Part shown: positions 6,778-54,364 of the stretch, piece after piece
Layout: each line of letters begins with the position of its first letter
Position numbering within the stretch: position 1 is the stretch's first letter
Position numbers and translations under genes: made by a program
Notes under the pieces: model-generated
What the model saw: only the letters and a program-made list of their open reading frames with translations
The model's database searches: none
Told to the model about the DNA's origin: nothing
Source: an uncultured Clostridia bacterium
GTDB taxonomy: Bacteria > Bacillota > Clostridia > Tissierellales > DATGTQ01
DNA length: 64,000 nucleotides
Reading direction: 5' to 3'
NCBI GenBank assembly: GCA_964447805.1
Contig: CAYUTQ010000005.1
Coordinates: forward strand, 8,398-72,397

Positions 6778-6889
6778 TTAGTAGCCTAATGGAAAAACTC
6801 ATAAATATTATAGTCAATATATATTGACAAATGTATATTGACTATAATATTTAATGGTGGTAATATTAATTATATATTTAGCTGGCTAA
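6778..6889 (+). promoter_or_regulatory. Promoter with palindromic operator candidates upstream of marR
   Basis: TTGACT(6838)-N17-extended TG-n-TAATAT(6861); TTAGCTGGCTAA (6878) and TTAGTAGCCTAA (6778); perfect palindrome GTCAATATATATTGAC (6813-6828). Confidence 0.55.
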
Positions 6890-7408: not shown

Positions 7409-9664
7409 ATGTTTAGGATAATAAAGGAGCTTAGGCCATTTCGTATATTGGTCTTTATAATAGTAGGCTTGCTTTTTGCTCAGGCGATGACAGACCTTGC
7501 TCTTCCTGATTATATGTCAAATATAGTCAATGTAGGAATACAGCAAAATGGGATAGAAAATGCAGTACCTGAAGTAATTAGAGCTACTGAAATTGGGAAA
7601 ATAAAAATGTTTTTAACTAAAGAAGAAAAAAGTTTGATAGATAACAATTATAAAGTTATAAACAAAGAAAATTTAAGTAAAGAGGAATATAAGGATTATT
7701 CTAAGAAATATAAGGCTTTGGAAAAAGAAAGCTTATATATTTTAAATACATCTTTTGAAGAAGATATTGAAAAGATGAATTCCTTTTTAGGGAAAGCTAT
7801 GCTTATTGTATATGGCTTAGAAGAGGGTACAACGCAAGGTATTGTTTCACAAGATGAAAACAAGGAAGAGAATCCTTTTGCAAACTTTCCAAAAGGGACA
7901 GATCCTTTTATAGTACTTGAAAATTTACCTAAAGAGCAGTTGGATCTTATGAAAGAGGAAGTAGATAAACAATTTAAAGATATACCAGATAGTATGATAA
8001 CCCAGTCTGCAATAAGCTATATAAAACTTGAGTATGAGGCTGTAGGAATAGATATGAACAAGCTCCAGTCCCGATATATTTTATCTACTGGTGGCAAAAT
8101 GTTACTTATTGCTCTATTGGGAATGGTAGCATCAGTAATTGTAGGATTCTTAGCTGCAAGAATTTCAGCTTCCCTTGGGAGAAATTTGAGGGATAAAGTG
8201 TTTAAAAAGGTTACATCCTTTTCAAGTGTAGAATTTGATAATTTTTCAACTGCTTCTTTAATAACAAGAAGTACCAATGATATACAGCAGGTACAGATGT
8301 TCGTGATGCTATTATTGAGGATGGTGTTCTATGCTCCAATACTTGGAGTTGGTGGAGTAATAAGAGCTCTTGATACAAATACTTCTATGGCATGGATAGT
8401 GGGAGTAGGAGTTATAGCTATTTTGACCCTTGTAATAATTCTTTTTGCTATTGCTATGCCAAAGTTTAAAAAGGTTCAAAAATTTGTTGATAAAGTAAAT
8501 TTAGTAATGAGGGAATCCCTTAGTGGAATAATGGTTGTAAGAGCCTTCAATACGCAGAAATTTGAAGAAGAAAAGTTTGATAGTGCAAACAAAGGTTTAA
8601 CTAAAACACATTTATTTGTTTCAAGAATAATGACTGTGATGATGCCAACTATGATGCTTATAATGAATGGCATAACATTGTTAATAGTATGGGTGGGAGC
8701 TCATGAAATAGATAAAGCTAATATTCAGGTTGGAGATATGATGGCATTTATGCAGTATGCAATGCAGATAATTATGTCTTTCCTTATGATATCCATGGTT
8801 TCATTAATACTTCCAAGGGCTTCAGTATCAGCTCAGAGGATAGCAGAAGTATTGGATGAAGATATAACAATTAAGGATCCTGAAATTCCAAAACAATTAA
8901 ATAGTGATGTAAAAGGGCTAATTGAATTTAAAAATGTGTGCTTTAAATATCCAGGAGCAGAAGAATATGTACTTGAAGATATATCCTTTATGGCAAGACC
9001 TGGAGAAACTACTGCCTTTATAGGAAGTACAGGAAGTGGTAAATCTACTTTGATAAATTTAATCCCTAGGTTTTATGACGTTACAAGTGGAGAAATTCTT
9101 TTTGATGGTGTAGATATTCGAAATATTTCCATTAATGATTTAAGAGAAAATATAGGATATGTTCCTCAAAAGGGAGTACTATTTACAGGGACTATAGAAA
9201 GCAATTTAAAATATGGAAAAAACTTTGATGCTACTGATGAAGATATCTCAAAATCTATAGAAATAGCTCAAGCGAAAGAACTTATAGAAGAAAAGGAGAA
9301 AGGAATATTATCTGAGATAGCCCAAGGTGGAACCAATGTATCAGGAGGACAGAAACAAAGGCTTTCAATTGCAAGGGCATTGGCTAAGAAGCCAAAGGTA
9401 CTTGTATTTGATGATAGTTTTTCGGCTCTTGATTTTAAAACAGATGTTGCATTAAGAAAAGCAATTAATAAAGAAATTAAAAATAGAACAATGCTTATAG
9501 TAGCTCAAAGGATAAATACAATAAAAAATGCAGAAAAGATTGTTGTTTTAGATGAAGGAAAGATAGTAGGCATTGGGACTCATAAAGAATTATTAAAACA
9601 GTGCAGAGTATATAAGCAAATAGCGTTATCGCAGCTGTCAGAGGAGGAACTAGCGTATGAGTAA
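7409..9664 (+). CDS. ABC-B exporter subunit 1 of a heterodimer (degenerate site), with large extracellular insertion
   Basis: TMD+NBD, GSTGSGKST, SGGQKQR, degenerate Walker B FDDSFSALD and AQR switch. Confidence 0.9.
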   Translation: MFRIIKELRPFRILVFIIVGLLFAQAMTDLALPDYMSNIVNVGIQQNGIENAVPEVIRATEIGKIKMFLTKEEKSLIDNNYKVINKENLSKEEYKDYSKKYKALEKESLYILNTSFEEDIEKMNSFLGKAMLIVYGLEEGTTQGIVSQDENKEENPFANFPKGTDPFIVLENLPKEQLDLMKEEVDKQFKDIPDSMITQSAISYIKLEYEAVGIDMNKLQSRYILSTGGKMLLIALLGMVASVIVGFLAARISASLGRNLRDKVFKKVTSFSSVEFDNFSTASLITRSTNDIQQVQMFVMLLLRMVFYAPILGVGGVIRALDTNTSMAWIVGVGVIAILTLVIILFAIAMPKFKKVQKFVDKVNLVMRESLSGIMVVRAFNTQKFEEEKFDSANKGLTKTHLFVSRIMTVMMPTMMLIMNGITLLIVWVGAHEIDKANIQVGDMMAFMQYAMQIIMSFLMISMVSLILPRASVSAQRIAEVLDEDITIKDPEIPKQLNSDVKGLIEFKNVCFKYPGAEEYVLEDISFMARPGETTAFIGSTGSGKSTLINLIPRFYDVTSGEILFDGVDIRNISINDLRENIGYVPQKGVLFTGTIESNLKYGKNFDATDEDISKSIEIAQAKELIEEKEKGILSEIAQGGTNVSGGQKQRLSIARALAKKPKVLVFDDSFSALDFKTDVALRKAINKEIKNRTMLIVAQRINTIKNAEKIVVLDEGKIVGIGTHKELLKQCRVYKQIALSQLSEEELAYE

Positions 9665-11501
9665 AGATAATAACACAAATCAAGGCCCAAAGGGTCATGG
9701 ACCTATGGCTGTGAGGTTTGAAAAGCCAAAAGATTTTAAAGGGACTTTCTCCAAACTTCTTGATTATTTAAAACCTTATAGATTAAAACTAATTATAGTT
9801 ATAATTTTTGCTATAGGGAGTACTATTTTTGCCATAGCAGGGCCTAAAATACTTGGGAAAGCAACAACTAAAATATTTGAAGGACTGATTTCAAAGATAT
9901 CTGGTGGCAAAGGAATTGATTTTTCCTATATAGGAGATATAATTTTAACTTTAATAGGATTGTACCTATTGTCCGCACTATTTTCTTATATACAAGGTTT
10001 TATAGTAACTGGAGTTTCACAGAAGGTATCTTATAAATTAAGAAAAGAAATTTCACAGAAGATAAATAGATTACCTCTTAAATATTTTGATTCAATAAGT
10101 TACGGAGAAGTATTATCTAGAGTTACCAATGATGTGGATACAGTAAGTCAATCATTAAACCAGAGTTTAAGTCAGATAATAACATCTGCTACTACTTTGG
10201 TAGGAGTACTCATTATGATGTTATCTATATCTTGGCAGATGACTATTGTTGCAATTTTGATATTACCTATATCAATGATTGTAGTAATGGGAGTAGTTAA
10301 TAGAAGTCAAAAATATTTTAAGGCACAGCAGAAGTCTCTTGGTGAAGTTAATGGACATATAGAAGAAGTATATGGTGGATACAATATAATGAAAGCTTTC
10401 AATGCTAAGGAACAAGTAGTTTCTGAATTTGAAGATATCAATACTGAACTTTATGATTCGGCTTGGAAAGCTCAATTTTTATCAGGGTTGATGATGCCTA
10501 TTATGAACTTTGTTGGCAATTTAGGATATGTTGCAGTTTCAATATTAGGTGGATGGCTTGCTATTAAAAAGACTATAGAGGTAGGAGATATACTTTCCTT
10601 TATTCAGTATATAAGGAGTTTTACTCAGCCAATAACTCAAGTGGCTCAAATAAGTAATGTATTGCAATCTACTATGGCTTCAGCTGAAAGAGTATTTGAA
10701 TTTTTAGCTGAGGAAGAGGAAGCTACAGAATCTCAAACACCTATCAAACTGGAAGAAGTAGAGGGAAGGGTAACTTTTGAAAATGTTAAGTTTGGATACA
10801 ATGAAGATGAAGTTATAATAAAGGATTTTTCTCAAGACATTAGTGAGGGACAAAAAGTTGCCATTGTTGGGCCTACGGGAGCAGGAAAGACTACCATTGT
10901 TAAACTTCTAATGAGATTTTATGATTTAAATGGTGGTAGAATACTTCTTGATGGTCATGATATAGTGGATTTTTCTAGGGGTGATTTGAGAAGCAATTTT
11001 GGTATGGTTCTTCAGGATACATGGCTTTTTAGTGGTACTATAATGGAAAATATAAGATATGGAAGACTTGATGCTACAGATGAAGAAGTAATTCAAGCTG
11101 CAAAATTAGCCCATGCTCATAGGTTCATAACTACCTTACCAGATGGATACAACATGGTTATAAATGAAGAGGCAAACAATATATCCCAAGGGCAGAAACA
11201 GCTTCTTACTATAGCAAGGGCAATTCTTTCAAATCCAAAGGTGCTTATATTAGATGAAGCTACATCTTCTGTAGATACTAGAACTGAAATACTCATACAA
11301 AAAGCCATGGCAAATCTTATGAAAGGGAGAACAGCATTCATTATTGCTCATAGACTTTCAACTATAACAAATGCAGATTTGATCTTGGTTATGAATGATG
11401 GAGATATTATAGAACAAGGTAGTCATGAAGAACTTCTATCAAAAGGTGGATTCTATTATTCCCTTTATAATAGCCAATTTGAAGGAGTAAAAGTGTCGTA
11501 A
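9657..11501 (+). CDS. ABC-B exporter subunit 2 of a heterodimer
   Basis: GPTGAGKTT, SQGQKQL, LDEATSSVD, IAHRLST; overlaps previous stop. Confidence 0.92.
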   Translation: MSKDNNTNQGPKGHGPMAVRFEKPKDFKGTFSKLLDYLKPYRLKLIIVIIFAIGSTIFAIAGPKILGKATTKIFEGLISKISGGKGIDFSYIGDIILTLIGLYLLSALFSYIQGFIVTGVSQKVSYKLRKEISQKINRLPLKYFDSISYGEVLSRVTNDVDTVSQSLNQSLSQIITSATTLVGVLIMMLSISWQMTIVAILILPISMIVVMGVVNRSQKYFKAQQKSLGEVNGHIEEVYGGYNIMKAFNAKEQVVSEFEDINTELYDSAWKAQFLSGLMMPIMNFVGNLGYVAVSILGGWLAIKKTIEVGDILSFIQYIRSFTQPITQVAQISNVLQSTMASAERVFEFLAEEEEATESQTPIKLEEVEGRVTFENVKFGYNEDEVIIKDFSQDISEGQKVAIVGPTGAGKTTIVKLLMRFYDLNGGRILLDGHDIVDFSRGDLRSNFGMVLQDTWLFSGTIMENIRYGRLDATDEEVIQAAKLAHAHRFITTLPDGYNMVINEEANNISQGQKQLLTIARAILSNPKVLILDEATSSVDTRTEILIQKAMANLMKGRTAFIIAHRLSTITNADLILVMNDGDIIEQGSHEELLSKGGFYYSLYNSQFEGVKVS

Positions 11502-12248: not shown

Positions 12249-12977
12249 ATGTCAGATACTATAAATGTAGCTATATGTGAGGATGAAAAAGTACAGGTTG
12301 AGCTCTTGGAAAAGCATGTGAAAATTTGGGGAGAACAAAGAAATATAAAGGTTATAATAGAGACTTTTTATAGTGCTGAAAGTTTTGATTTTAGCTGGAG
12401 CATGGACAAAAGATATGATGTACTTTTATTGGATATTCAGATGCCAGGGCAAAATGGCATTGAACTGGCAAAGAAAATAAGAGAAGAAGACGATATAATA
12501 AATATAATCTTCATCACTGCTATACCTGATTATATTCAAGAGGGTTATGATGTAGAGGCAATAAATTACCTAATCAAACCAGTAGATGAAAAGAAACTAT
12601 ATGAATGTTTGGATAGGGCCCTTGAAAAAGTTCCAAAGGAGGAGAAGATAGTTCTTATAGAGGAGCAAGGAGAGATTTATCGAATAATACAGAATGATAT
12701 ATTGTATGTTGAGTCTTTCGGACATGATGTAGAAATAAAAACTATAGATGAAAAATATATTATCAGAAAAAATATGGGTACCGTAGAGAAGGAACTGGAT
12801 GAGAATAGTTTTGTAAGATGTCATAGATCCTATATTGTTGGATTGAAGCATATAAAAAGAATAGGAAAAGATGAGTTGGAATTGGATAATAAGGTTACAA
12901 TTCCTGTGAGCAGGAGACAATACTCTAAAACCAATATGGCATTTATAAGATACTATAGAGGTGAAGTAGATGAATGA
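12249..12977 (+). CDS. LytTR-family response regulator
   Basis: LLDIQMPGQNGIELA receiver; FVRCHRSYIV and IPVSRR LytTR motifs. Confidence 0.95.
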   Translation: MSDTINVAICEDEKVQVELLEKHVKIWGEQRNIKVIIETFYSAESFDFSWSMDKRYDVLLLDIQMPGQNGIELAKKIREEDDIINIIFITAIPDYIQEGYDVEAINYLIKPVDEKKLYECLDRALEKVPKEEKIVLIEEQGEIYRIIQNDILYVESFGHDVEIKTIDEKYIIRKNMGTVEKELDENSFVRCHRSYIVGLKHIKRIGKDELELDNKVTIPVSRRQYSKTNMAFIRYYRGEVDE

Positions 12978-13704
12978 GGGAAAGATAGTTGGGATAATTG
13001 GCATTATTTTAGTTTCATGTATTTTCCTATTTTTCATCATTAGGCATATATTATATAGGCTAGTGGATAAGCGTATTGCTAACTATCAGGATGACCTTAT
13101 GACAAAGCATTATAATGAAGTTGAGAATATCTATAGGCAGATGAGAGGCTGGAGGCATGACTATCACAATCATATACAACTAATGAAGGCATATCTTGAT
13201 TTGGAGAAATATGAAGAAATGGCGGAATATTTAAATAACTTGGATAGGGATTTGACCAATATAGATACAGTTTTGAAAACAGGGAATGTTATGGTAGATG
13301 CAATACTAAATAGTAAACTATCTTTGGCAATTAATCAGGATATAAATATAAATGCAAAGGCAACAGTTCCTAAAAGTCTTCAGATAGCAGATATAGATCT
13401 ATGTGTTATCATTGGAAATTTGATGGACAATGCTATGGAGGCTGCAACTGAGTTGAAAAATCCAGAAGATAGGTTTATAAGGGTGTACATAAGAGAGATG
13501 AAGGGGCAATTATATATTTCCATAACTAATTCCATGAAAGGTAATGCTAAAAAGGCAGGTTTGGAATATATAACCACAAAGTTAGGGAAAAATCATGGTT
13601 TTGGTCTAAAGAGGGTAGACAGCATTGTTGATAAATATGAAGGCTTTATAAATAGACAAAGTGAAGAAGGAGTATTTGTGACAGAGATAACTTTGCCTAT
13701 ATAG
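12970..13704 (+). CDS. Short GHKL/AgrC-like histidine kinase with one TM helix
   Basis: WRHDYHNH H-box, GNLMDNAMEA, NHGFGLKRV; 244 aa. Confidence 0.92.
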   Translation: MNEGKIVGIIGIILVSCIFLFFIIRHILYRLVDKRIANYQDDLMTKHYNEVENIYRQMRGWRHDYHNHIQLMKAYLDLEKYEEMAEYLNNLDRDLTNIDTVLKTGNVMVDAILNSKLSLAINQDININAKATVPKSLQIADIDLCVIIGNLMDNAMEAATELKNPEDRFIRVYIREMKGQLYISITNSMKGNAKKAGLEYITTKLGKNHGFGLKRVDSIVDKYEGFINRQSEEGVFVTEITLPI

Positions 13705-18350: not shown

Positions 18351-19274
18351 ATGAATTATTTACTTTCAGTTCAAAACTTATCAAAAAAATATAGCAATCA
18401 ATTTGCCATTAATAATATAAGCTTAAATTTAAAAAAAGGCGAAATTTATGGGCTAATTGGGAAAAATGGAGCAGGGAAAACAACACTTTTAAAGATTATA
18501 GCAGGATTGGTAAAACCTAGCGATGGGGATGTTGCTTTATTTGACTATAGTGGGGCTAGCAGGAAAAAGGTTTTATCAAGAATAGGTACATTGATAGAAG
18601 CTCCTGGACTATATTCAAATTTAACAGCATATGACAACTTGAAGTTAAAGTGTTTATGCTTAGGGATAAATGATCCTAAATATATTGGTTCTATCTTAGA
18701 AATTGTTGGGCTAGAAGGGGAGTCAAACAAAAAGGTGAAACAATATTCTTTAGGAATGAAACAGAGATTAGGAATTGCTATGGCATTAGTAGGAGAACCA
18801 GATTTGTTATTATTAGATGAACCTATAAATGGACTAGATCCACAAGGGATAAAGGATGTTAGAGATATTGTATTGAAACTCAACAAAGAGTTGGGGATAA
18901 CAATGATAATTTCAAGTCACATTTTGGATGAATTGTTAAAGATCGTTGATAGGTTTGGAATAATCAATGATGGAAGGCTATTAAAAGAAATATCGAAGGC
19001 AGAGCTTAAGGAAATATGTTGCAATCATATTGAAATAAAGATAGAAGAACCTAAAAAAGCAATTGTAGTCCTAGACAAATTAGGATTTAACAATTACAAG
19101 GTAATAGATAATCATACGATAAATATTTATGAAAGATTAAATGATAGTGGATTAATCTCAATGGAATTATATAAGAATAATATTTCTATTAACAGCATTT
19201 GCATAGAATCTATTTCCATAGAGAATTATTTTATTCATTTGACGGGAGGGAATATTGATGAACAATCTAATTAG
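18351..19274 (+). CDS. ABC ATPase, BcrA/LanF-like
   Basis: GKNGAGKTT, YSLGMKQRLG, LDEPINGLDPQG, ISSHIL; AGGAGG before ATG 18351. Confidence 0.93.
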   Translation: MNYLLSVQNLSKKYSNQFAINNISLNLKKGEIYGLIGKNGAGKTTLLKIIAGLVKPSDGDVALFDYSGASRKKVLSRIGTLIEAPGLYSNLTAYDNLKLKCLCLGINDPKYIGSILEIVGLEGESNKKVKQYSLGMKQRLGIAMALVGEPDLLLLDEPINGLDPQGIKDVRDIVLKLNKELGITMIISSHILDELLKIVDRFGIINDGRLLKEISKAELKEICCNHIEIKIEEPKKAIVVLDKLGFNNYKVIDNHTINIYERLNDSGLISMELYKNNISINSICIESISIENYFIHLTGGNIDEQSN

Positions 19275-20428
19275 GATGGATTTTTATCGTATGAGAAAAA
19301 GTAAAACCACATGGATTATTTTGATGTTTTTGATATTAATGATGTTTGCCTCTGTTTATATGTCTTATTCGGATATAGAGTATTACAAGAACAATCCATC
19401 TGCATTAGAAAATCTAAAATCATCTTCGGAGGAAGTTAATTGGGGAATGTATATAGGGAGTGTTTCGGCAAAGTGGTGCGAAGATAATAAAGTTCCCGTT
19501 GATGGATTAATCAAAATAAATATTCAGAGCAAAATTGTACTAATGTTTTTAGTTGTGTTATTGTGGGTTTTGTAAGTAAAGAAAATACTTCTGGTTTTAT
19601 TAAAAATATTGCAGGACAAGTATCAAATCGTGGATTTATATTGTTGTCTAAAATGATTATCGTAGGGATATATTCATTAATTTTATTGGCAGTAGCAATT
19701 GTAACAATATTTGTAAGTAGTAAAATATTGTTTGGATATGTTTTTGAGGAGAATTTAGGATTGTTGATAAAATATATTCTTTATCAATGGATATTGCATG
19801 TGGCATTTGGATCATTTATGATATTTTTAATTACACTTTTAAAAAATGAAATTGCAAGTTTATTGATAGGAATTTTAGTTTCTGCTGGTATACTACAAAT
19901 TGTTGATGCTTTCATAAAATCAAATAAAAAAAGTATAATGTACTTTTTAAATTCAGGAAACATTGGACGATTAAGTTTGGGAGATTGTAGACCATTACTT
20001 ATAGCGGTTGTTTCAATGACAATATATATGGCAATTAGTATGTATGTTATCAATAATAGAGATATTCAATAAGGAGAGTATTAGGATGAAGTTTGCGTTA
20101 ATTATTATCATTATTATTTTATTTATTGCTATATTATATTTATATAATTATTGGAAACAAGTTCGTTCTATTGCTGAGCAATTAAAATTTATTATTTCAC
20201 ATGATACAAATAAAATTATTTTTTGTAATATGAAAGATAAAGAAATAAACAAATTAGCTAGAGAAATTAATGAATTGATTAATCAATCAAAGGGTTTAAA
20301 AAAGGAATATGTAAATAAAGATATTTATTTAAAAAACACTTTAACAAGCTTATCTCATGATATAAGAACTCCGTTAACTTCCTTAGATGGTTATATTCAA
20401 TTACTAAAAGTAAGTGATGATTTGAATA
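19190..20428 (+). repeat. 1,239-bp direct repeat, copy 1
   Basis: Line-by-line match to 29431-30669 (offset 10,241); only 3 mismatches seen (19201, 19202, 19224). Confidence 0.97.
19258..20072 (+). pseudogene. ABC-2-type permease split by a 1-nt deletion
   Basis: 106-aa and 169-aa ORFs overlap at 19563-19575; adding one T at GTGTTA (~19557) gives VVFIVGFVSKENTSGFIKN and a 271-aa protein. Confidence 0.85.
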
Positions 20429-20985: not shown

Positions 20986-21059
20986 TAGGAAAATTAAATT
21001 ATATTAAATGTTATAATATTAATTAATATATAATTTATGTGGAAGGAGATATAGATATA

Positions 21060-21563
21060 ATGAAAAAAGCAGAAGTAAGTAATTTTAAAAGTTGTTTAAA
21101 GCCAACTGTGGATATTTTGGTTTCTTGTAAAGGGAAAAATGGAGAAGTTAATGCATTAGCTGTTGGATATGCTGGTAATTGTAGTTATGATCCTCCAATG
21201 GTTATGGTTGGAATTGTACCTAGCAGATATTCTCATCATATGATTAAAGAAACTGGAGAATTTGTTGTAAATCTTGTACCAGAAAATCTAAGAGAAAAAT
21301 ATGCTTATCTAGGTAGTACTAGTAGAAAAGATGAAGATAAGCTTACTACAGTAGAAATGAAATATGAAAAAGGTGTAAAAGTGAATGCACCAATACTTTT
21401 AGATTGTCCAGTCAATATTGAATGTACAGTAGTTGACTCTATAATGACCGGTTCTCATGAAATGTTTGTTGGAAAGGTTGAATATATTCATGCAGATGAA
21501 AATCTAGTAGACAATAAAGGTAACATTGATTATTCTAGAATTGATTTATTAAAGTTTAGATAA
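21060..21563 (+). CDS. Flavin reductase-like FMN-binding protein
   Basis: PPMVMVGIVPSRYSHHMIKETGEFVVN, APILLDCPVNIEC, GSHEMFVG. Confidence 0.9.
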   Translation: MKKAEVSNFKSCLKPTVDILVSCKGKNGEVNALAVGYAGNCSYDPPMVMVGIVPSRYSHHMIKETGEFVVNLVPENLREKYAYLGSTSRKDEDKLTTVEMKYEKGVKVNAPILLDCPVNIECTVVDSIMTGSHEMFVGKVEYIHADENLVDNKGNIDYSRIDLLKFR

Positions 21564-21661
21564 AATTGAATTGATTTTTACCAAACAGCAGGAATCATAT
21601 CTTCTGTTTGGCATAAATTAAATTTTTATTTATCAAATATATTTTGTAGAACTAAATATGT

Positions 21662-21686
21662 AGGGGCGGTCTTTGACCGCCCTTTT
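21662..21686. terminator. Bidirectional terminator
   Basis: GGGCGGTC-TTT-GACCGCCC then T run; between convergent genes. Confidence 0.85.
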
Positions 21687-21689
21687 ATA

Positions 21690-24613
21690 TTACTTTTTCA
21701 ATTTAACAATATTATTAAATACTTCTTCATTTTCCTTTATCTTATTTTCATTACCCAATACACATAGATAATCTTGTTTCATTGTATTTTCAAGAATAAG
21801 TGAAAGGTCTCTTATGTTTTCAAGTTTTGTGCTTAGCACTTCATCTCTTGTTCTTTGTATTTCATCTTGACTAATATTTGAAATATATCTTATTGTTGCA
21901 ATTTGTCCCTTCATGTGAGGAGTCAAAGCTGGATCTAGACGACTCATGGTTCCTATTATGAATGTTGTCAAATCAGATTCATCTAGGTTTAAGTTTTTAA
22001 TATAATCTGCCATACTATCATAAGTATTTATAGTTTCTTTTAGATTAGGGTCCCTATAGGAGTACGTAACTACATGACCTGTAGTATCAAAGGATATACC
22101 TGCACCGTAAGCTCCCCCTCGTGCTCTAATTCTATTGTGAAGGTAATCCCCATTTAATATAGTAGCTAGAACTAACATACTACCATTGTAGTCATATCCA
22201 AGCTTTTTAAAATTATAGCCTTTAGATACATATTGGACATTGCCAGATGAAAATATTCCTTCATTCAATTTTTCTTCAGAAAAACTAAATTTCTTACTTT
22301 CTATTTTTTCTGTATTGAGTGATTTTGTTACAACTTTTAGATTGTCTTTAATAATGGAGAAGTCTTCCTTATCTCCCGTGAAGGATACAATTAAATTATT
22401 AATATTAAATATCTTTTTGTAAACTGAATTGAGATTGGACATGATTTCTTCACTATTTTCATCAAAGTTTTCTAGTATATCTGAAAGAAACCAATAGAAA
22501 TCTAGTCCATTTACTTTATCCATATATCTCATAGTAGGTGAGAAATAGGAACCAACTCTTACAGATGCTATAGAATGACCCATATCATATATAACCATTT
22601 CTATTCTTGATTTAAGTTGTTGAAGCAATTCTTTAACTCGTTTTTTGTCTTCTAATTTAGTTTCTGTAATCAATGTATTTGTAAGTTCTAATAATTTAAC
22701 TATATTATCTCCTATAGCTTTGCCATTGATGTTAAACTTAGGATGGAAAACTTCGTTACACCCATTTTCTCCATATGCATTGACATTAAAATTAATTCCA
22801 CCAGTATTTACATATATTTCATTTGAGAGATCTGAATAAGTCATATTCTTTGTATCCATTTTTCCTAGAAGCCAAGTCAATATATTTGCATATGGAATTA
22901 ATTCATCATCAAGCGTGCTTATATCAAAATAAAAGTCTACATAGGCAATCTTACTAGTAAAAATATCATGATAAAGTATAGTATAGTTATCTTTTTTGAT
23001 TATATTTTGAGGAATAACTAAAGCTTTAGGCTCTACATCAGCTAAAGATAGCCTTGGAATTGTAGCTTTAGCTTCTTCAGTATCATCAGACAATTGAATT
23101 GTTTTAAGTTTTTCATTTTGTGCAATTAAATTATTAATGTCATCTTCAGCAAGGGATTGTTTATAAGCAGCTAACTTTTTCTTTGTTTCATTAATTTTTT
23201 CTTCTCCCAATCCTTTTTTAGGTTCTATAATGACCATAGAACTATGGGAGTTATTAATTATTCTCTCTTCAATGAATTTTTCAAAGTAACCATTATTAAT
23301 ATTATTTCTAAGTTTTTTTATGGTTTCATCATATTGTAGATGAGTTGTAGGGCTACTATCATACAACCAGCTATCCAAGGACTGTATATTATATATATAA
23401 GTCCTTTAGTTGGGAATTTTCCAGCTTCTCTTAGATTGTATTCAACTATATTTATGCAAGCTTCTATTAGTTTTTTATCGATACCTTCTTTAACTAATTT
23501 GTTTAGAGTATCATAAACTATTTTTTCAAATTCATCTTTTTTGTCTATTGATGTATTTTTTGCAACAATGCCAAACCCTAGCTGTATACTATCTGTTACC
23601 ATAGGCAATATATCTTCTCCTATTCCACCGTTGATTAATGCTATTTTAAGTGGAGCAGCTTGAGATTCTATTAATAATTGACTTAATATACTACTCATTA
23701 AATAAGTTTCTGGATCTGTTTTTTCCCCCAATACAAAGTTTAAGCTTAAATAAGTACGGTTTTCTGCACTTTCATCTATTGATATAGGGTAGTAATCCAT
23801 TAATTCATTTCTAGATGTAAAAGGTTTTTGAACATCAATATGAGAATCTACTTCTATTTTATCAAATTTGGATAGATAGTTTTCATCTATAAATTTAAGA
23901 TGTTTTTGTATATCTCCATTGCCATATAAGTATATATAGCTATTTGATGGATGATAGAATTTTTTATGAAAATCCAAAAAAGATTTATAACTAAGTTCTG
24001 GAATAACATCAGGATTGCCACCAGAGGAATATTGATAACAAGTATTTGGATAGAGGGATTTGCTTATATTTTCTTCTAGAATTGTTTCAGGAGATGAATA
24101 GGCTCCTTTCATTTCATTATATACAACACCTTTATACTCTATATCATCTTCATTATTAAATAATTCATAATGCCAACCTTCTTGCATAAATATTTCTGGT
24201 ATTTCATATATACTAGGATAAAAAACTGCATCTAAATAGACATCCATGAGATTTAAAAAGTCTTTTTCATTTCTACTAGCTATGGGAAATATCGTCTTAT
24301 CACTAAAGGTCATGGCATTAATAAATGTTTGTAATGATCCCTTTAACATATCCATAAAAGGTTCTTTAGTTGTGTATTTTCTAGAACCAGATAGAACACA
24401 ATGCTCTATTATATGTGGAACCCCAGTACTATCTGATGGAGGTGTTCTAAATCCAATGGAAAATACTTTATTGTCATCATCATTTTCTAGATGTAGCAAT
24501 TTTGCACCTGATTTTTCGTGTTGAAATATTCTTGCAATTGATTGTATTTCTTTTACTTCATACTCATCTACTAAATTAAATCCAAAATAATTTTTACCAA
24601 TTTTAAAAGTCAA
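21690..24613 (-). pseudogene. Insulinase-family (M16C, PreP-like) metallopeptidase, frameshifted by a 2-nt insertion
   Basis: HIIEH zinc motif, INAMTFSDKT, GVVYNEMKGA, IRARGGAYG; 2,924 nt is 974 codons plus 2 nt; shift in the (AT)4 tract at 23391-23398. Confidence 0.9.
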
Positions 24614-24767
24614 ATTAAGACCCCCTTTAATATAAATTGTGTAATAATCACTATTATAACATATATGACAGGGTACAGTTTTATAAATTCAGGACAAGCA
24701 TACTAGTAGTTATCAAAAGCTTACAATGTGCTATAATATTTGTTATAAATAATAAATAGGTGAAATT

Positions 24768-24917
24768 ATGAATAACAAAAAATTAATAATCATTAGATAT
24801 TTTATATTGGCCACTTTGATATTTAGCATTGTAGGATATAAAGAAAATGTAGATGTTTATAATGTTATTTCAGTACTTAATTTTTCGCAATGTTTTACCA
24901 AAAGAAATAAGATTTAA
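24768..24917 (+). pseudogene. 49-aa ORF, probably a decayed lipoprotein gene
   Basis: MNNKKLIIIRYFILATLIFSIVGYKEN...; RBS AGGTGA; extended -10 TGCTATAAT upstream; IVGY is one base from the lipobox IVGC. Confidence 0.4.
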
Positions 24918-24965
24918 ATCCATAAAAACACTTCCTATAAAATATACGTAAATAATGTAAACAAA

Positions 24966-25013
24966 AACCTACTTTAAAGTAGGTTGAATTATATACATTT
25001 ATTGTATATAATT
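24966..25013 (+). promoter_or_regulatory. Sigma-A promoter with two adjacent palindromes
   Basis: TTGAAT(24984)-N17-TATAAT(25007); perfect 20-bp palindrome AACCTACTTTAAAGTAGGTT (24966-24985); 11-bp IR AATTATATACA-N5-TGTATATAATT (24987-25013). Confidence 0.75.
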
Positions 25014-25047
25014 ACAAACAATAGAACAAGCAGGGTGATGTTGAAAA

Positions 25048-25191
25048 ATGAAGAAGAAACTGTTAGTACTGATAGCGTTATTTACAATGACATTAGGGGT
25101 TGTGTTAAACCGTGGACAACCTGTTAAGTATGTGGTTCAGGATGATGGAGAAATTGAATGGAATAGTTACATTGAAGGAGAACTATTATAG
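25048..25191 (+). CDS. 47-aa secreted-type small peptide (not in the ORF track)
   Basis: MKKKLLVLIALFTMTLGVVLNRGQPVKYVVQDDGEIEWNSYIEGELL; RBS AGGGTGA; its own promoter; basic N-terminus, hydrophobic core, acidic tail. Confidence 0.7.
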   Translation: MKKKLLVLIALFTMTLGVVLNRGQPVKYVVQDDGEIEWNSYIEGELL

Positions 25192-25215
25192 TATAGAATA
25201 TCAGATTTATTTTTA

Positions 25216-26175
25216 ATTAATTATGTTAATATAATATTTTAGGCACGATTTTCCGAACGCTATAAAATGTAGTTAAGAAAGAAGTGTCTAAAGTGGTAAA
25301 AAGAGATATACAGAAGAACATAAGAGTTTGGCTGTAGAACTTTATAATGCTAGTAAATTCCTAAAAAATGTTAGCGCCGAATATGGCTTATCTAAATTCA
25401 CAATATTAATATGGGTAAAAAAGCTGATTCTATAGCAATCAATAAAAATGAAGTAATTACTCAGGCTGATTATGAGGTTTTATTAAAGAAAATAGCTAGA
25501 GTAGAAGGGAAAAATGAAATACTAAAAAAGCAATGGTCATATTTACATAGTATTTAAGAAGTTTAAATCTTTTATTTTAAAAAGCAGGGTAGAAAGTAGA
25601 GAAAATATAATAAATAGAGATTTCTCTAATACTGACATTAACCAAAATAGGTAACTGATATTATCTATATTCATGACATTAAAGATGGTTGGTGTATCTA
25701 GTTTCTGATATGGATCTTAACAGCAGAAAGGTAATTAGAGGTCTCCATGTCTAAGAATATGTATACTAAATTAACTATTAAAGCAGTAAAAAAATATTTA
25801 TAAATTTCATAAACCTAATGAAAACTTAATATCTCATAGTGATTTAGAAAGTCAATATACAAGTTGTGAATTTGAAGAATGTATTAAAAAGCTTAGAATA
25901 ACCTATTCCTTTAGTGGTAAGGGCAATTCTTATGATAATGTTTGTATCGAATCCTTCCATTCTGTATTAAAAACGGAAGAGGTTAATTTAGTTAAATATT
26001 TCGATTTTGATGCTACAAGATTTTCAATATTTGAATACATTGAATCATGGTACAACAGAGAAAGAATACACAGCTCTTTGGGCTATATTAGCCCCCAAGA
26101 GTGGGAAGATAATACTAAGAGAGGATCATAAAAAAGCATTCGAAAAGATATATCTATTTTATTGACATAAGTCCA
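25216..26175 (+). mobile_element. Degenerate IS3/IS150-family element
   Basis: orfA remnant GKKRYTEEHKSLAVELY...EYGLS...EILKK; rve remnant HSDLESQYTS...KGNSYDNVCIESFHSVLK...WYNRERIHSSLGY; right end ...ATTGACATAAGTCCA; left-end core TTATGTTAATATAATA matches 14/16. Confidence 0.9.
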
Positions 26176-26198
26176 TTATATGCAAAAGATTGGAGGGG

Positions 26199-26735
26199 AT
26201 GAAGATAAAAATAATAAGTAAATTTACTCATAAACCAGATATAACAACTCAATGTAGATTAAATTCTATTGCTGATATATTCCAATATAATGGAATAAAA
26301 TTAAGTGAAGAAATGTGTTTTGGTTTAGGTGAAGCTTTAACTTTTGAGTACTGGTTAGATACAAGCAGTAAATTTCCTACAATCATAATAAATGGATTTG
26401 ATTTTAATATGGAAAATAGGTTATTTAATAAATTTAACGTTAAAAGAATAATTCATTATAATAGTAAAATAGATAATGAAGATATAATTAACTGTATAAA
26501 TAAAAATGATTTAGTAATGGTAGATTTAGATAGATATTATCTAGAGTATCTTGATATAACGAAGGCACACTTTGGATTTCATTCAGTAATTATAATAGGG
26601 TATAAAATTGAAAATAAAATTTTATATTGGGGAATTATTGATGGATTTAAAAAAGAATTGATATGGTATCCAGATAAAAAATTACGTATTGCAAGAGATT
26701 CAACTTGTGGAATTTTAAAATCTAATAAGCTGTGA
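26199..26735 (+). pseudogene. BtrH N-terminal-like (papain-fold) protein, truncated
   Basis: TQCRLNSIAD..G..LSEEMCFGLG, DRYYLEY, HFGFHSVIIIGY, IIDG; ends at TGA just before the IS630 remnant; RBS GGAGGGG before ATG 26199. Confidence 0.75.
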
Positions 26736-26842
26736 CTGCTAGTATTTATAATACAAGCAGCAATCCTTAAAGATTAATAAAGGTGGTAACAAGCTAATTT
26801 TACTTATTATATTAATATAGATAAACAAGTTTAAAAATCAAA

Positions 26843-27369
26843 CTATTTATAATAATATCTAGCATTAACAAGAGATTTAGTTTCAGCTTTATTAGAGTTG
26901 GCATAATTAAAATAATCTGAAATGAAATCTTTAATTTCATCAATTGTGGTTTTTGCTTTATATTCATAGGAATAGGATTTTAATTTATTCCATATATTTT
27001 CTTGTAAATTCAACATTGGTGAATAAGATAGAAGATTTTAAATAAATAATTTCTCCTCATGCTGGCTAATAAATTCTTGAACAGCTTTTGAAGCGTGAAC
27101 TCTAGCATTATCCCAAATCATGAACACTCTTTTATTCTTGTTTATGTTTAGTAGTTTTTTAAAAAATTTAATAATTGCGTTAGAAGTAATTCTCTCATCG
27201 GAAGAGTACACATTTACAATTGAATCAAAGTTTTTGCTAATCTCAGCAGCACTGATGATATTAACGCTTTTACGGCTACCATTTCTTTCTATTGCAGGGG
27301 GTTTCCTATGGAACTCCAACTGCGATAGTTATTGGATCCTACTTTGATTTTGGTTTTATCTTGAATATA
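26843..27369 (-). mobile_element. IS630-family transposase remnant (3' half only)
   Basis: YIQDKT..RSWS, 1-nt frameshift, PPAIERNG, IWDNARVHASK, in-frame TAA, then LLSYSPMLNLQENIWNKLK (degenerate LPxYSPxLNPxExxW). Confidence 0.88.
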
Positions 27370-27370
27370 T

Positions 27371-27577
27371 AAATATGGACAAATTCCTATAGCATTTGTA
27401 AAAGTACTTAAAAAAAATATAACAAATGAAAATGATATTTTAATGTATTGCTTTAAAAGACTTTCAAACTATAAATGTCCACAAAAAGTTATATTTGTAG
27501 ATGACATACCTAAAAATGTTATGGGTAAAGTAGATAAAAAACAGTTGTTTGAATCTTATAAGTTTAAATTAATTTAA
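27371..27577 (+). pseudogene. C-terminal stub of an AMP-dependent synthetase/ligase
   Basis: KYGQIPIAFV...CFKRLSNYKCPQKVIFVDDIPKNVMGKVDKKQL matches the AMP-binding C-terminal (A10 PxxxxGK) pattern; no start codon, abuts the IS630 remnant. Confidence 0.85.
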
Positions 27578-27684
27578 GTATATAACATTTTCATGAACAT
27601 ATGACAATTAATTATAATAATATTAATTTCTAATATACTCAAACACTGTTGTAGATTAAATATTATAAAAAATGGGGGATTTAT

Positions 27685-28953
27685 ATGAATATAAAACTAC
27701 TGAAACAAAAAGACTTTTTTCTACTCATAATGGGGGAGACAGTGTCGCTTATAGGAACAATAATGCAAAATTTTGCATTATCATTATATGTACTTGCAAT
27801 AACACATTCAACTGTTAAATTTGCTTCAGTAACAGCTATAACAATATTCCCTAAACTTATTTTAGGTCCATTTTCAGGGGTCATTGCAGATAGATTTAAT
27901 AGGAAGAAAATTATTGTAGGAACTGATTTAATAAATGGCATTTTAATGGGGATTTATGCTCTGTTATTTTTTATAAATGGACATTTAAGCTTATTGAGTA
28001 TATACATATTAGTTATTTCAATTACAATAACTAATATTATTTTTGAACCTGCAATTCAAACTGTAATTCCTTCAATAGTAGAGAAAGAATCATTAGTTGA
28101 TGCAAATTCAATAGATACATTATTTTCAAGCCTTTCAAATATATTAGCATTAGCTCTTGGTGCAATTTTATATGATAATTTAGGAATAGGTGTTATATTT
28201 ATAATAAATTCTATCAGTTTTATATTATCTGCTATTAGTGAAATTTTTATAAACATACCTAAAAACAATCTAAAAAATGATAAATTAAACTTAAAAATGT
28301 TCTTTTCCGATTTTAAAGAAGGCATCACTTGCATTAAAAATGAAAAATTAATATTTAACATTTTGATTATAATGATTTTCATAAACTTTGCTTTTAATCC
28401 AATCTTTAAAATTGGTTTACCATATATATCAATAAAAGTCTTGGATGGGAATGGAATACAGTACTCTGTTCTACGTATAGCAATAATTTTATCTGGAATA
28501 ACTGCTTCTTTAATCTCATCTAAATTGTGCAAAAAATACACAATAAACAAACTTCTAATTAGAAGTGGTTTAATAATATCACTATGTATGTTTTTGATAT
28601 CTTTTTCTATATCAAAAATTTATTTAAATATTTTTTCAAATACTATAGTACCTTTTATTACGATATTAATTATATGTTTTTTAATGATGCTGATAGCTAC
28701 TTTATGCAATATAGCGGCTGGCACAATAATCCAAGAAACAATTTCATTAGATATGCTTGGAAGAATACAATCAGTAATTATGATGGTATGTACTATAGCT
28801 GTTCCTGCAGGTGAGATGTTCTTTGGATTTATGTTTGATGCTACTAGCCCTGCGATAACAATAGGAATATCTTCATGTATTATATTTGTAACTGTTTTAT
28901 TATCAAGTAAGTATTTTTTAATTTCAAATAATAAACAAAAAATTAAAAATTAA
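27685..28953 (+). CDS. MFS exporter (DHA3/macrolide-efflux-like)
   Basis: 12 hydrophobic segments, GVIADRFNRKKIIV motif A, MLGRIQS. Confidence 0.9.
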   Translation: MNIKLLKQKDFFLLIMGETVSLIGTIMQNFALSLYVLAITHSTVKFASVTAITIFPKLILGPFSGVIADRFNRKKIIVGTDLINGILMGIYALLFFINGHLSLLSIYILVISITITNIIFEPAIQTVIPSIVEKESLVDANSIDTLFSSLSNILALALGAILYDNLGIGVIFIINSISFILSAISEIFINIPKNNLKNDKLNLKMFFSDFKEGITCIKNEKLIFNILIIMIFINFAFNPIFKIGLPYISIKVLDGNGIQYSVLRIAIILSGITASLISSKLCKKYTINKLLIRSGLIISLCMFLISFSISKIYLNIFSNTIVPFITILIICFLMMLIATLCNIAAGTIIQETISLDMLGRIQSVIMMVCTIAVPAGEMFFGFMFDATSPAITIGISSCIIFVTVLLSSKYFLISNNKQKIKN

Positions 28954-29012
28954 CAAATGGTTGGGAGATAAGCGTCAAATCCACTAGAAATGTTTTCTAT
29001 GAGACAATACCC

Positions 29013-29429
29013 TTAAATATCACTAATAAGAGAGGTTATCTCAAATGAAGGAAGAAGAAAAATTTCTCTACAGTTACTTATAATTTTATTTTTTAACTCT
29101 TTTTGTCCAAATGCTTCACATAAAACTATGGATGTTTCAAGCGATTTCTTATATTCTATTTTATTCAATTTATATTCAGCAATTCCTTTCCCATAGTATA
29201 GAATACTTAATCCATTAAAATTTCCTATTTCTTGACAAGCATCAATTCCCATATTAGAAAACTTCAATGCTTTTTCAAAGTTTTTATTTCTTCTGTAAAC
29301 TCCAGCTAAGTTGTGACACAGTTTAGGATACATTTCATCATTAGAATCTACTGAGTTTATACAAAATTCCATTATTTCTTGATATTTGTCTTTATGTCCT
29401 AATCCGTTTAATACAAAAGCTATATTCAT
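29013..29429 (-). pseudogene. C-terminal TPR half of a probable XRE-TPR (RRNPP-like) regulator, 5' part missing
   Basis: Helical repeats KLCHNLAGVYRRNKNFEKALKFSNMGI and LSILYYGKGIAEYKL; sequence is cut at the repeat junction (29430); no RBS. Confidence 0.65.
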
Positions 29430-29430
29430 A

Positions 29431-30669
29431 TAACAGCATTTCTATAGAATCTATTTCCATAGAGGATTATTTTATTCATTTGACGGGAGGGAATATTGAT
29501 GAACAATCTAATTAGGATGGATTTTTATCGTATGAGAAAAAGTAAAACCACATGGATTATTTTGATGTTTTTGATATTAATGATGTTTGCCTCTGTTTAT
29601 ATGTCTTATTCGGATATAGAGTATTACAAGAACAATCCATCTGCATTAGAAAATCTAAAATCATCTTCGGAGGAAGTTAATTGGGGAATGTATATAGGGA
29701 GTGTTTCGGCAAAGTGGTGCGAAGATAATAAAGTTCCCGTTGATGGATTAATCAAAATAAATATTCAGAGCAAAATTGTACTAATGTTTTTAGTTGTGTT
29801 ATTGTGGGTTTTGTAAGTAAAGAAAATACTTCTGGTTTTATTAAAAATATTGCAGGACAAGTATCAAATCGTGGATTTATATTGTTGTCTAAAATGATTA
29901 TCGTAGGGATATATTCATTAATTTTATTGGCAGTAGCAATTGTAACAATATTTGTAAGTAGTAAAATATTGTTTGGATATGTTTTTGAGGAGAATTTAGG
30001 ATTGTTGATAAAATATATTCTTTATCAATGGATATTGCATGTGGCATTTGGATCATTTATGATATTTTTAATTACACTTTTAAAAAATGAAATTGCAAGT
30101 TTATTGATAGGAATTTTAGTTTCTGCTGGTATACTACAAATTGTTGATGCTTTCATAAAATCAAATAAAAAAAGTATAATGTACTTTTTAAATTCAGGAA
30201 ACATTGGACGATTAAGTTTGGGAGATTGTAGACCATTACTTATAGCGGTTGTTTCAATGACAATATATATGGCAATTAGTATGTATGTTATCAATAATAG
30301 AGATATTCAATAAGGAGAGTATTAGGATGAAGTTTGCGTTAATTATTATCATTATTATTTTATTTATTGCTATATTATATTTATATAATTATTGGAAACA
30401 AGTTCGTTCTATTGCTGAGCAATTAAAATTTATTATTTCACATGATACAAATAAAATTATTTTTTGTAATATGAAAGATAAAGAAATAAACAAATTAGCT
30501 AGAGAAATTAATGAATTGATTAATCAATCAAAGGGTTTAAAAAAGGAATATGTAAATAAAGATATTTATTTAAAAAACACTTTAACAAGCTTATCTCATG
30601 ATATAAGAACTCCGTTAACTTCCTTAGATGGTTATATTCAATTACTAAAAGTAAGTGATGATTTGAATA
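29431..30669 (+). repeat. 1,239-bp direct repeat, copy 2
   Basis: Matches 19190-20428. Confidence 0.97.
29499..30313 (+). pseudogene. Duplicate of the frameshifted permease
   Basis: Identical 106-aa and 169-aa ORFs. Confidence 0.9.
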
Positions 30670-54254: not shown

Positions 54255-54275
54255 AAGGTTATTAGATACCTATAT

Positions 54276-54307
54276 AATAAAATGCACCTTTAAAGGTGCA
54301 TTTTATT
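54276..54307. terminator. Palindromic terminator
   Basis: AATAAAATGCACCTTT / AAAGGTGCATTTTATT. Confidence 0.8.
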
Positions 54308-54364
54308 ATTACTCTCAAATATTTGTTATAATAAGTACATAATAAAAAATATTGGAGGTTTGTT

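Follow-up and report, generated by a model that had tools for sequence, protein, structure and literature searches.

What does an unannotated frame of 47 codons do in the genome of an uncultured anaerobe, and does its product act as a signal, as the substrate of a biosynthetic enzyme, or not at all? The frame in question occupies positions 25048–25191 of a 64,000-nucleotide stretch of DNA, which we refer to as the window, from an uncultured Clostridia bacterium (GTDB lineage Bacteria; Bacillota; Clostridia; Tissierellales; DATGTQ01; assembly GCA_964447805.1, contig CAYUTQ010000005.1, positions 8,398 to 72,397 of the forward strand). An earlier inspection of the letters (the original prediction) had proposed that it encodes a peptide of the secreted type, either a quorum-sensing propeptide or something akin to the precursor of a ribosomally synthesized and post-translationally modified peptide (RiPP). 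We conclude, with a probability of roughly three in four, that the open reading frame (ORF) codes for the precursor of a signalling peptide that is secreted, and that this precursor belongs to a quorum-sensing cassette of the RRNPP type with a PlcR/Rgg-like regulator that contains five tetratricopeptide repeats (TPRs; "clan A"). The data bear directly on the reality of the gene, its family, its linkage to a regulator, the fold of this regulator, the operator dyad, the variable outputs, and the breakage of the cassette in the window. The peptide gene has the following parts:

25048–25191 (stop codon included), plus strand: ORF of the 47-residue propeptide, ATG start, translation MKKKLLVLIALFTMTLGVVLNRGQPVKYVVQDDGEIEWNSYIEGELL (ORF list and sequence).
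25048–25116, plus strand: signal-like N-terminal part, residues 1–23 (MKKKLLVLIALFTMTLGVVLNRG; family alignment).
25141–25170, plus strand: conserved core DDGEIEWNSY, residues 32–41, the presumed mature pheromone region (family alignment, substitution rates, core duplication).

The reading frame, its ribosome-binding site, and the succession of basic, hydrophobic and acidic segments are exactly as originally described. The MKKK n-region is followed by hydrophobic residues 5–20 and by an acidic tail (net charge about −5). Cysteine and AgrD-like motifs are both absent, again in agreement with the first description, and the peptide matches no model in Pfam, the AgrD model included, or in NCBIfam. 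Two close homologs share 76% and 72% of its residues. A profile search against 1.84 billion representative sequences returned 41 matches at E ≤ 0.001, about 37 of which are peptides of 45–52 residues with the same design: an MKK(K/R) start, some 16 hydrophobic residues, N-x-x-Q-P, and an acidic tail around D-G-(E/I/V)-I-E-W-(N/H/Q)-S-Y. In the alignment of 37 sequences, E37 is invariant, and D33, I36 and W38 are each at least 90% conserved. The conserved core that the original prediction had hoped to find by homology therefore exists in the form of a near-invariant D-x-x-I-E-W, but it does not sit at the very C-terminus; a variable tail of 5–7 residues follows it. Residues 1–23 keep their layout across the family while their sequence varies, and most of the non-synonymous change falls in this part.

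The ratio of non-synonymous to synonymous substitution (dN/dS), calculated by the Nei–Gojobori method from three close DNA copies, with small counts, is 0.20–0.31 for the whole ORF and 0.04–0.18 for codons 23–42, which hold the core. Because of these ratios, small counts included, and because of the breadth of the peptide family, sequence comparison identifies 25048–25191 as a real gene under purifying selection and not as a chance ORF; such selection was among the expectations of the original prediction. Single precursors from three related loci (L034 5582–5794, L036 568–786 and L040 3640–3858; handles of this form denote loci throughout) contain two copies of DDGLIEWN (…DDGLIEWNS…DGLIEWND…). 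This duplication within one precursor points to the core as the unit that would be released.

The exact protein is on record only in contigs labelled "fossil metagenome", one of which (L001) is 100% identical to positions 21018–29611 of the window. A peptide scan of the GTDB species genomes gave a single, spurious match from Elusimicrobia, a search of JGI metagenomes with a narrower peptide alignment found nothing, and we found no description of an I-E-W peptide family in the literature. Three other identities were considered and dismissed. A small RNA was rejected since Rfam gives no match on either strand of the peptide gene. The alternative-frame ORF 24984–25127 has its start within the promoter and is read in a frame that relatives do not conserve. 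Finally, a phage or plasmid origin finds no relatives in IMG/VR or PLSDB.

The region 5' of the peptide gene contains three further elements:

24968–24983, no strand assigned: perfect 16-bp palindrome CCTACTTTAAAGTAGG, presumed operator of a dimeric regulator, abutting the −35 hexamer (dyad conservation).
24984–25012, plus strand: sigma-A-type promoter with −35 TTGAAT at 24984–24989, a 17-nt spacer and −10 TATAAT at 25007–25012 (scan, score 10/12; conservation).
25032–25038, plus strand: ribosome-binding site AGGGTGA, 9 nt 5' of the ATG (read from the sequence).

The near-consensus sigma-A promoter that had been claimed for the gene is indeed present, but the scan match does not establish it. 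The scan found 7 sites against 8.4 in shuffled sequence, so that, in DNA as AT-rich as this, a match by itself does not exceed chance. The promoter gains its credibility from its conservation in relatives. In homologous loci of about 78% identity, the −35 and −10 hexamers, the ribosome-binding site and the 16-bp palindrome keep the same spacing. The promoter is conserved in L005, L010 and L017, and in more distant loci it lies at the same distance from the ATG. Homologs carry a ribosome-binding site of the GGAGG type at the equivalent place.

The palindrome CCTACTTTAAAGTAGG occurs as a single copy in the window, where 0.02 copies are expected. The best-paired 16-mer dyad, with 7 or more of its 8 positions matched, lies at the identical position in 13 of 18 loci, where it abuts a TTGNNN (or TTTATT) hexamer 63–75 nt 5' of the ATG. 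The arms of these dyads differ from locus to locus yet covary: CCTAC/GTAGG, GCGAC/GTCGC, CGGAC/GTCCG, CGGGC/GCCTG, CCGAT/ATCGG and CCAGA/TCTGG. The dyad is centred near −43.5, a position at which class II activators and Rgg proteins bind. From the dyad we infer that a regulator dimer would bind at this site and that the peptide gene would be autoregulated. Sequence alone does not decide between activation and repression, with activation being most likely. A terminator-like match on the minus strand (24985–24966) is this same operator palindrome between divergent genes and was rejected as a terminator.

Which regulator could this be? We fetched 80 metagenome loci with an alignment of the regulator and then scanned them with a hidden Markov model (HMM) of the peptide. 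The peptide gene is present in 22 of the 80 loci, and it always adjoins the regulator gene. The two genes are divergent in L005–L010, L017, L024, L026, L034, L036, L038–L040, L051, L059, L083 and L103, and convergent in L030, L035, L068, L076 and L090. Among loci with 400 nt or more of flank on each side and a regulator that shares at least 45% of its residues with the query, 14 of 18 match the peptide HMM. The arrangement by which RRNPP systems are recognized, a propeptide ORF that adjoins the receptor gene, is thus seen at the level of the family in more than 20 loci. More distant regulators are accompanied by recognizable variants of the peptide, such as EEDAIDLHY and EKDIIDWHS. The cultured isolate Wansuia hejianensis (GCA_014385225.1, contig JACRTK010000003.1) contains an intact 47-residue version at L103 6718–6861, already called as a gene, that is divergent from its regulator (P0068).

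Intact homologs of this regulator, which bears a helix-turn-helix (HTH) domain, are about 303 residues long. The search for them gave 308 matches, many with precomputed RNPP_C matches, and their sources include Sporanaerobacter, Tissierella, Proteiniborus, Proteinivorax, Wansuia, Isachenkonia and many digester and fermentation metagenomes. Pfam RNPP_C matches to the regulators are weak and below the cut-off, and a sequence-only search of the PDB with the regulator matched the HTH only. An AlphaFold2 model was calculated from a 45-sequence alignment for the homolog P0052, not for the broken gene in the window. The model has a mean confidence score (pLDDT) of 91 and consists of a five-helix HTH followed by 11 helices. 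Foldseek comparison with the PDB returned the PlcR–PapR7–DNA complex (3u3w) as the best match (E 5e-9, template-modelling scores 0.69/0.74, 294 columns), with a sequence identity of only about 17%. Rgg2, ComR, PrgX and Rap–Phr follow, and the top matches PlcR, Rgg2, ComR and PrgX each have a probability of 1.00. On the strength of the predicted fold and of these matches, the partner of the peptide is, as modelled, an HTH-bearing RRNPP receptor with five TPRs that resembles PlcR and Rgg. Five-TPR receptors with an HTH constitute clan A, and nine-TPR receptors constitute clan B (PMC12700828).

How might such a cassette work? In intact members, the propeptide would be exported by means of its basic and hydrophobic N-terminus, presumably through the Sec pathway. 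Trimming outside the cell would then yield a short acidic peptide that contains D-G-(E/I/V)-I-E-W, and this peptide would be taken up again, presumably by the oligopeptide permease (Opp). In the cytoplasm it would bind to the TPR domain of the adjacent HTH regulator of about 303 residues, and the regulator dimer on the 16-bp dyad would control, and most likely activate, the peptide gene together with the operon that follows. The operon under such control would most often be a RiPP cluster of either the radical S-adenosylmethionine (SAM)/SPASM or the class I lanthipeptide kind. In this scheme, export, processing, the identity of the mature peptide, re-import, binding and the sign of regulation are modelled on the RRNPP paradigm.

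The genes that follow the peptide gene could also point to a different role, in which the peptide would itself be a RiPP precursor. A maturase would modify the I-E-W-x-S-Y segment, for example by a Trp/Tyr cross-link, and the product would be an antimicrobial or a modified pheromone. A radical SAM/SPASM gene stands directly after the peptide gene in L005–L009, L026/L027, L038, L039 and L051, which include five distinct loci (L005, L026, L038, L039 and L051), and the motif, which is aromatic, acidic and strongly conserved, looks like a site of recognition or modification. However, members of the same family also precede LanC and then LanB (L017), LanC (L024), an HD_5 protein gene (L034 and L040), an S8 subtilase gene (L059) and a PadR/DUF2812 gene (Wansuia, L103). 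In the convergent arrangement the peptide gene stands alone with the regulator, and no downstream enzyme gene follows (e.g., L030, L035 and L068). The constant partner is the regulator and not an enzyme.

Several loci contain precursor candidates of their own, apart from the cysteine-free I-E-W peptide. In L017, a 59-residue peptide with an FDLD leader box and a core rich in Ser, Thr and Cys precedes LanC, and in L039 two Cys-rich peptides with strong ribosome-binding sites precede the radical SAM gene. The nearest maturase models (Clo7bot and Cys-rich families) describe enzymes that act on Cys-rich peptides. A Sec-type N-terminus would also be atypical for the leader of a RiPP that matures in the cytoplasm. 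Two marks of a RiPP precursor, obligate co-occurrence with a maturase and modifiable core residues, are not found in the I-E-W peptide. An AgrD-type precursor fares no better, as the missing Cys and the missing AgrD match in Pfam are joined by the lack of an AgrB-like neighbour in any locus. Since the receptor is constant while the downstream genes vary, since RiPP loci carry precursor candidates of their own, and since the core can be duplicated, the peptide is probably a pheromone precursor and the variable downstream operon its regulated output, a scheme known from PlcR/PapR and from the Rgg-controlled radical SAM RiPP operons. That the peptide is a RiPP substrate appears distinctly improbable.

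The genes of L005–L009 have a common order: an XRE-HTH gene on the minus strand, the peptide gene, a radical SAM/SPASM maturase, a small ORF that contains Cys, and a lipoprotein related to erythromycin esterase and Tiki proteins. The best model for the L005 maturase is the Clo7bot peptide maturase with 367 bits, below the cut-off of 600 bits, and this enzyme may represent an undescribed maturase family. The small ORF that follows it (L005 4663–4857, 49/64 residues) contains a GGG-Cys motif and three Cys, and is a candidate precursor of a ranthipeptide or a sactipeptide-like product. The lipoprotein of the erythromycin-esterase/ChaN/Tiki superfamily comes next (L005 4905–6263).

Several observations weigh against the assignment of the peptide as a pheromone precursor. 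First, no RNA run contains the stretch; it occurs only in DNA runs labelled "fossil metagenome". Second, the peptide is missing or truncated beside some close regulators (L019, L012, L022, L025 and L071). Third, the radical SAM gene is the commonest immediate neighbour of the peptide gene (five distinct loci). Fourth, the c-region (LNRG followed by QP) has no canonical AxA site for signal peptidase, and the N-terminus could for this reason be a membrane anchor. Finally, RRNPP systems normally diversify into pherotypes, and a core that is near-invariant while receptors have diverged to about 45% identity is unusual for them; it fits a recognition or modification motif better. This constancy keeps the idea of a modification or recognition motif alive at low probability.

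The fourth of these points leads to the idea of a small protein that is anchored in the membrane or secreted and does something else. It might, for example, modulate the regulator while tethered to the membrane, confer immunity, act as an accessory factor, or be a bacteriocin that carries no modification. In such a protein, the roughly 16 hydrophobic residues could serve as a signal anchor. Nevertheless, the tight pairing with a PlcR-fold receptor and the autoregulatory look of the dyad are the signature of a pheromone gene, and the duplication of the core in single precursors argues for a short unit that is released. A bacteriocin in particular is hard to reconcile with the acidic tail of about 25 residues, which is unlike the cationic class II bacteriocins. 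We consider a membrane-bound or accessory role unlikely.

The constancy of the core also permits a more speculative proposal. The receptors diverge to about 45% identity and are spread over Sporanaerobacter, Tissierella, Wansuia and many metagenome lineages from digesters and fermenters, yet the core is almost unchanged. For this reason D-G-x-I-E-W could be read as a cross-species "public" signal that synchronizes RiPP production in anaerobic communities, with receptor-less copies that keep their promoter, like that of the window, acting as signal-only emitters that manipulate their neighbours. In a variant of this proposal the invariant Trp would be modified, and the modified pheromone would address the PlcR-fold receptor. 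Either version strikes us as improbable.

The assignment to a signalling cassette concerns the family. What remains of the cassette in the window itself is defined by the following features:

24885–24923, minus strand: relic of the regulator 5' end, codons 1–13 (MDLNLISFGKTLR...), divergent from the peptide gene (blastn, alignment, tblastn).
29013–29429, minus strand: C-terminal fragment of an RRNPP regulator, cut off at 29430, at the start of a duplicated segment (tblastn; blastn, 97%; sub-threshold RNPP_C/TPR matches in Pfam; junction present in independent contigs).
27685–28953, plus strand: transporter of the MFS_3 type, tail-to-tail with the regulator fragment as in Sporanaerobacter acetigenes (Pfam; 98.8% amino acid identity to the S. 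acetigenes protein).
24768–24917, plus strand: 49-residue ORF, what is left of the N-terminus of a HisKA_3 histidine kinase, joined to the cassette relic near 24886 (L012 alignment).

DNA homology to related cassettes is limited to 24869–25218, a segment of 350 bp with 78% identity (blastn against L005–L010 and L012; alignment) in which lie regulator codons 1–13, the operator with the promoter, and the peptide gene. The ORF 29013–29429 corresponds with 96% identity to residues 176–299 (124 residues) of the intact 304-residue regulator of S. acetigenes, which is located at L012 10701–11615 (GCA_004349435.1). Residues 14–175 are nowhere to be found in the 64-kb window (tblastn), nor does the window contain a radical SAM or an esterase-like gene. 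The original prediction had named the TPR regulator at 29013–29429 as a possible receptor of the signal. This idea holds for the family, which does pair with an RRNPP regulator of this kind, but the ORF itself comes from a broken gene, of which it represents just the C-terminal third. By comparison with these relatives, the local circuit is dismantled, and the peptide gene is a stranded remnant with neither a local receptor nor a maturase operon. The peptide of this copy can at most be produced from basal activity of the promoter, and it could signal only to a paralogous or foreign receptor.

In S. acetigenes, the operator and promoter module lies directly 5' of the MFS gene (L012 12956–13118), and the MFS_3 gene at 27685–28953 may belong to the regulon. 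Compared with S. acetigenes, an extra 2.6 kb (25052–27668) separates the promoter module of the window from the start codon of the MFS gene. Independent Logan contigs reproduce 24400–29495 as one piece, and the assembler depth doubles from 29431 onward. On the other side of the cassette, window positions 23436–24886 align with L012 16378–14927, and the alignment ends inside a kinase gene. The 49-residue ORF 24768–24917 was rejected as a second peptide gene since it is the stub of this kinase. For annotation, the peptide gene, the "TPR regulator" ORF and the 49-residue ORF should be corrected to pieces of one eroded locus.

Is the peptide gene of the window then a functionless leftover of a decayed cassette? 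The question touches only what the gene does now, and a positive answer would agree with the assignment to the family. No more than 350 bp of the cassette are left, the regulator is split and lacks residues 14–175, and the partner genes are gone. The neighbourhood is equally fragmented (a split M16 peptidase, the kinase stub, an ORF with BtrH_N only, and DDE_3 and AMP-binding_C fragments), and relatives show the same erosion, with an IS21 element in L005, a 9-codon peptide in L019 and a truncated or fused peptide in L012. On the other hand, the ORF, the ribosome-binding site, the −10 and −35 hexamers and the perfect dyad are intact, and the core is identical to that of the relatives. Our view is limited to 64 kb, and an intact paralogous regulator may lie elsewhere, as S. 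acetigenes has several copies of the module. We regard a dead relic as a possibility to be taken seriously, although we doubt it.

In its second alternative, the original prediction had the peptide serve as substrate for two enzymes encoded further downstream in the window, a BtrH-like acyltransferase and an AMP-ligase. Physical proximity is what speaks for this idea. Both ORFs are fragments: the BtrH_N ORF (26190–26735) consists of this domain only, the AMP-binding_C piece (27443–27577) codes for 44 residues, and a DDE_3 transposase fragment separates them. The cassette homology stops at 25218, and the following 2.45 kb (25219–27668) have no counterpart in S. acetigenes or in about 100 related loci, so that these enzymes accompany the peptide in none of them. 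We find this role hardly credible and dismiss the claim. The segment 25219–27668 contains short ORFs, the BtrH_N-only ORF (a weak DarH-like match), the DDE_3 transposase fragment and the AMP-binding C-terminal fragment, and it looks like debris of another small biosynthetic locus. ORFs at 25328–25557 look like fragments of an IS3-type OrfA by eye only; Pfam gives no match, and the label is tentative.

The wider surroundings show further signs of rearrangement. A direct repeat of 1,249 bp (19180–20428 and 29422–30669, 99.5% identity) brackets the 9-kb region that holds the peptide gene. Each copy contains an ABC-2 permease gene and the 5' portion of a histidine kinase gene; the second kinase copy is truncated (137 vs 313 residues). 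The repeat is genuine and no artefact of the window, since independent runs show a doubled assembler depth across it. The M16/PreP-type peptidase at 21690–24613 on the minus strand is distributed over two overlapping ORFs (562 and 431 residues, overlap 23318–23378). It is probably a frameshifted pseudogene, judging from the S. acetigenes orthologue, which is a single protein of 973 residues. Self-comparison of the window also revealed a perfect 36-bp palindrome and an 88%-identical inverted repeat of 52 bp (54274–54309 and 6802–6853).

Related loci contain similar traces. In S. acetigenes (L012), the module of regulator 5' stub, dyad and promoter occurs three times within 6 kb (12956–13118, 10499–10744 and 7829–8044), and one of the copies adjoins an internally deleted regulator of 125 residues (P0007). 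These copies suggest recombination between modules and membership of the MFS gene in the regulon. The S. acetigenes peptide is truncated after QPV at the junction with esterase-like sequence. The HTH gene of L005–L009 is cut short by an IS21 element, and the Proteiniborus locus L022 has insertion sequence fragments in the cassette. The metagenome relative L019 (7762–8000), whose regulator is 85% identical, keeps an intact dyad and promoter, but its peptide ORF ends with a stop codon after only 9 codons (MKKKLLVII), and S41 peptidase genes come next. L019 is thus the receptor-only counterpart to the peptide-only state of the window.

With the family in hand, an unannotated ORF of 47 codons becomes a member of a gene family with a testable triad of ligand, receptor and operator in poorly studied anaerobes, the Tissierellia and relatives from digesters, fermenters and the gut. 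The cassette usually stands before RiPP clusters that look silent, and adding the core as a synthetic peptide could offer an easy way to induce them and discover their products. The constant acidic core with its Trp, the precursors with two cores and the covarying dyads also provide material for the study of RRNPP specificity.

RRNPP cassettes beside RiPP clusters are of a kind already known, while the I-E-W peptide family is experimentally uncharacterized. The structurally closest system is PlcR/PapR of the Bacillus cereus group. Like the I-E-W regulator, PlcR combines an N-terminal XRE-type HTH with about five TPR-like helix pairs. The propeptides are also alike, with about 48 residues, a basic and hydrophobic N-terminus and the active region, presumed for the I-E-W peptide, in the C-terminal half, and in both systems a palindromic box at the promoter of the peptide gene implies autoregulation. 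In contrast, papR follows plcR in the same orientation, but the I-E-W genes are divergent or convergent. The mature PapR signal consists of the C-terminal heptapeptide, while a variable tail of 5–7 residues comes after the I-E-W core. The PlcR box, TATGNAN4TNCATA, differs from CCTACTTTAAAGTAGG and its covarying variants, and the I-E-W hosts are anaerobic Tissierellia and Clostridia. Because the genes are arranged differently, the box has another sequence and the active region another position, the I-E-W family is a structural relative and not an orthologue of PlcR/PapR.

The streptococcal Rgg systems with short hydrophobic peptides (SHPs), which control radical SAM RiPP operons for streptide and tryglysin, share the divergent orientation of regulator and peptide with a radical SAM RiPP operon 3' of the peptide gene. 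The regulator of the I-E-W family also matches Rgg2 and Rgg3 strongly in structure. SHPs are shorter and hydrophobic, are exported by PptAB and are cut by Eep. They are not Sec-like precursors with an acidic core that contains Trp, and the outputs of the I-E-W family extend to lanthipeptide, HD-domain, subtilase and PadR genes. Density-dependent production of modified peptides, documented for Rgg/SHP (PMC8092268, PMC9389541, PMC13361665), would follow the same logic in the I-E-W family.

A further parallel comes from the RRNPP_detector catalogue (Bernard et al. 2023, PMC10075063), which predicts RRNPP control for 196 biosynthetic gene clusters. The catalogue assigns the receptor QQY79072.1 (310 residues by coordinates) from Keratinibaculum paraultunense, a member of the Tissierellaceae, to "subfam_03_PlcR". 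According to this computational prediction, a divergent propeptide of 50 residues with an SP(Sec/SPI) signal lies 120 bp away, and a class II lanthipeptide cluster, one of the 196, is adjacent (PMC10075063). This pair resembles the I-E-W cassette in geometry, sizes and taxon, and it is likened by these, not by the sequence of its propeptide. The strings IEWNSY, EIEW and IIEW are absent from the searched supplements of PMC10075063, where two matches to "VIEW" are ordinary words.

Phr/Rap, NprX/NprR and the Qsp/Qsr systems of Clostridium acetobutylicum use Sec-type propeptides of about 40–60 residues and derive a short mature peptide from the C-terminal half, as is presumed for the I-E-W peptides. 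In some Phr precursors the active unit is internal, as is the core of the I-E-W peptides. The receptors set these systems apart: Rap, NprR and QssR-type proteins contain nine TPRs (clan B), whereas the receptor of the I-E-W family is a five-TPR protein with an HTH that is closest to PlcR.

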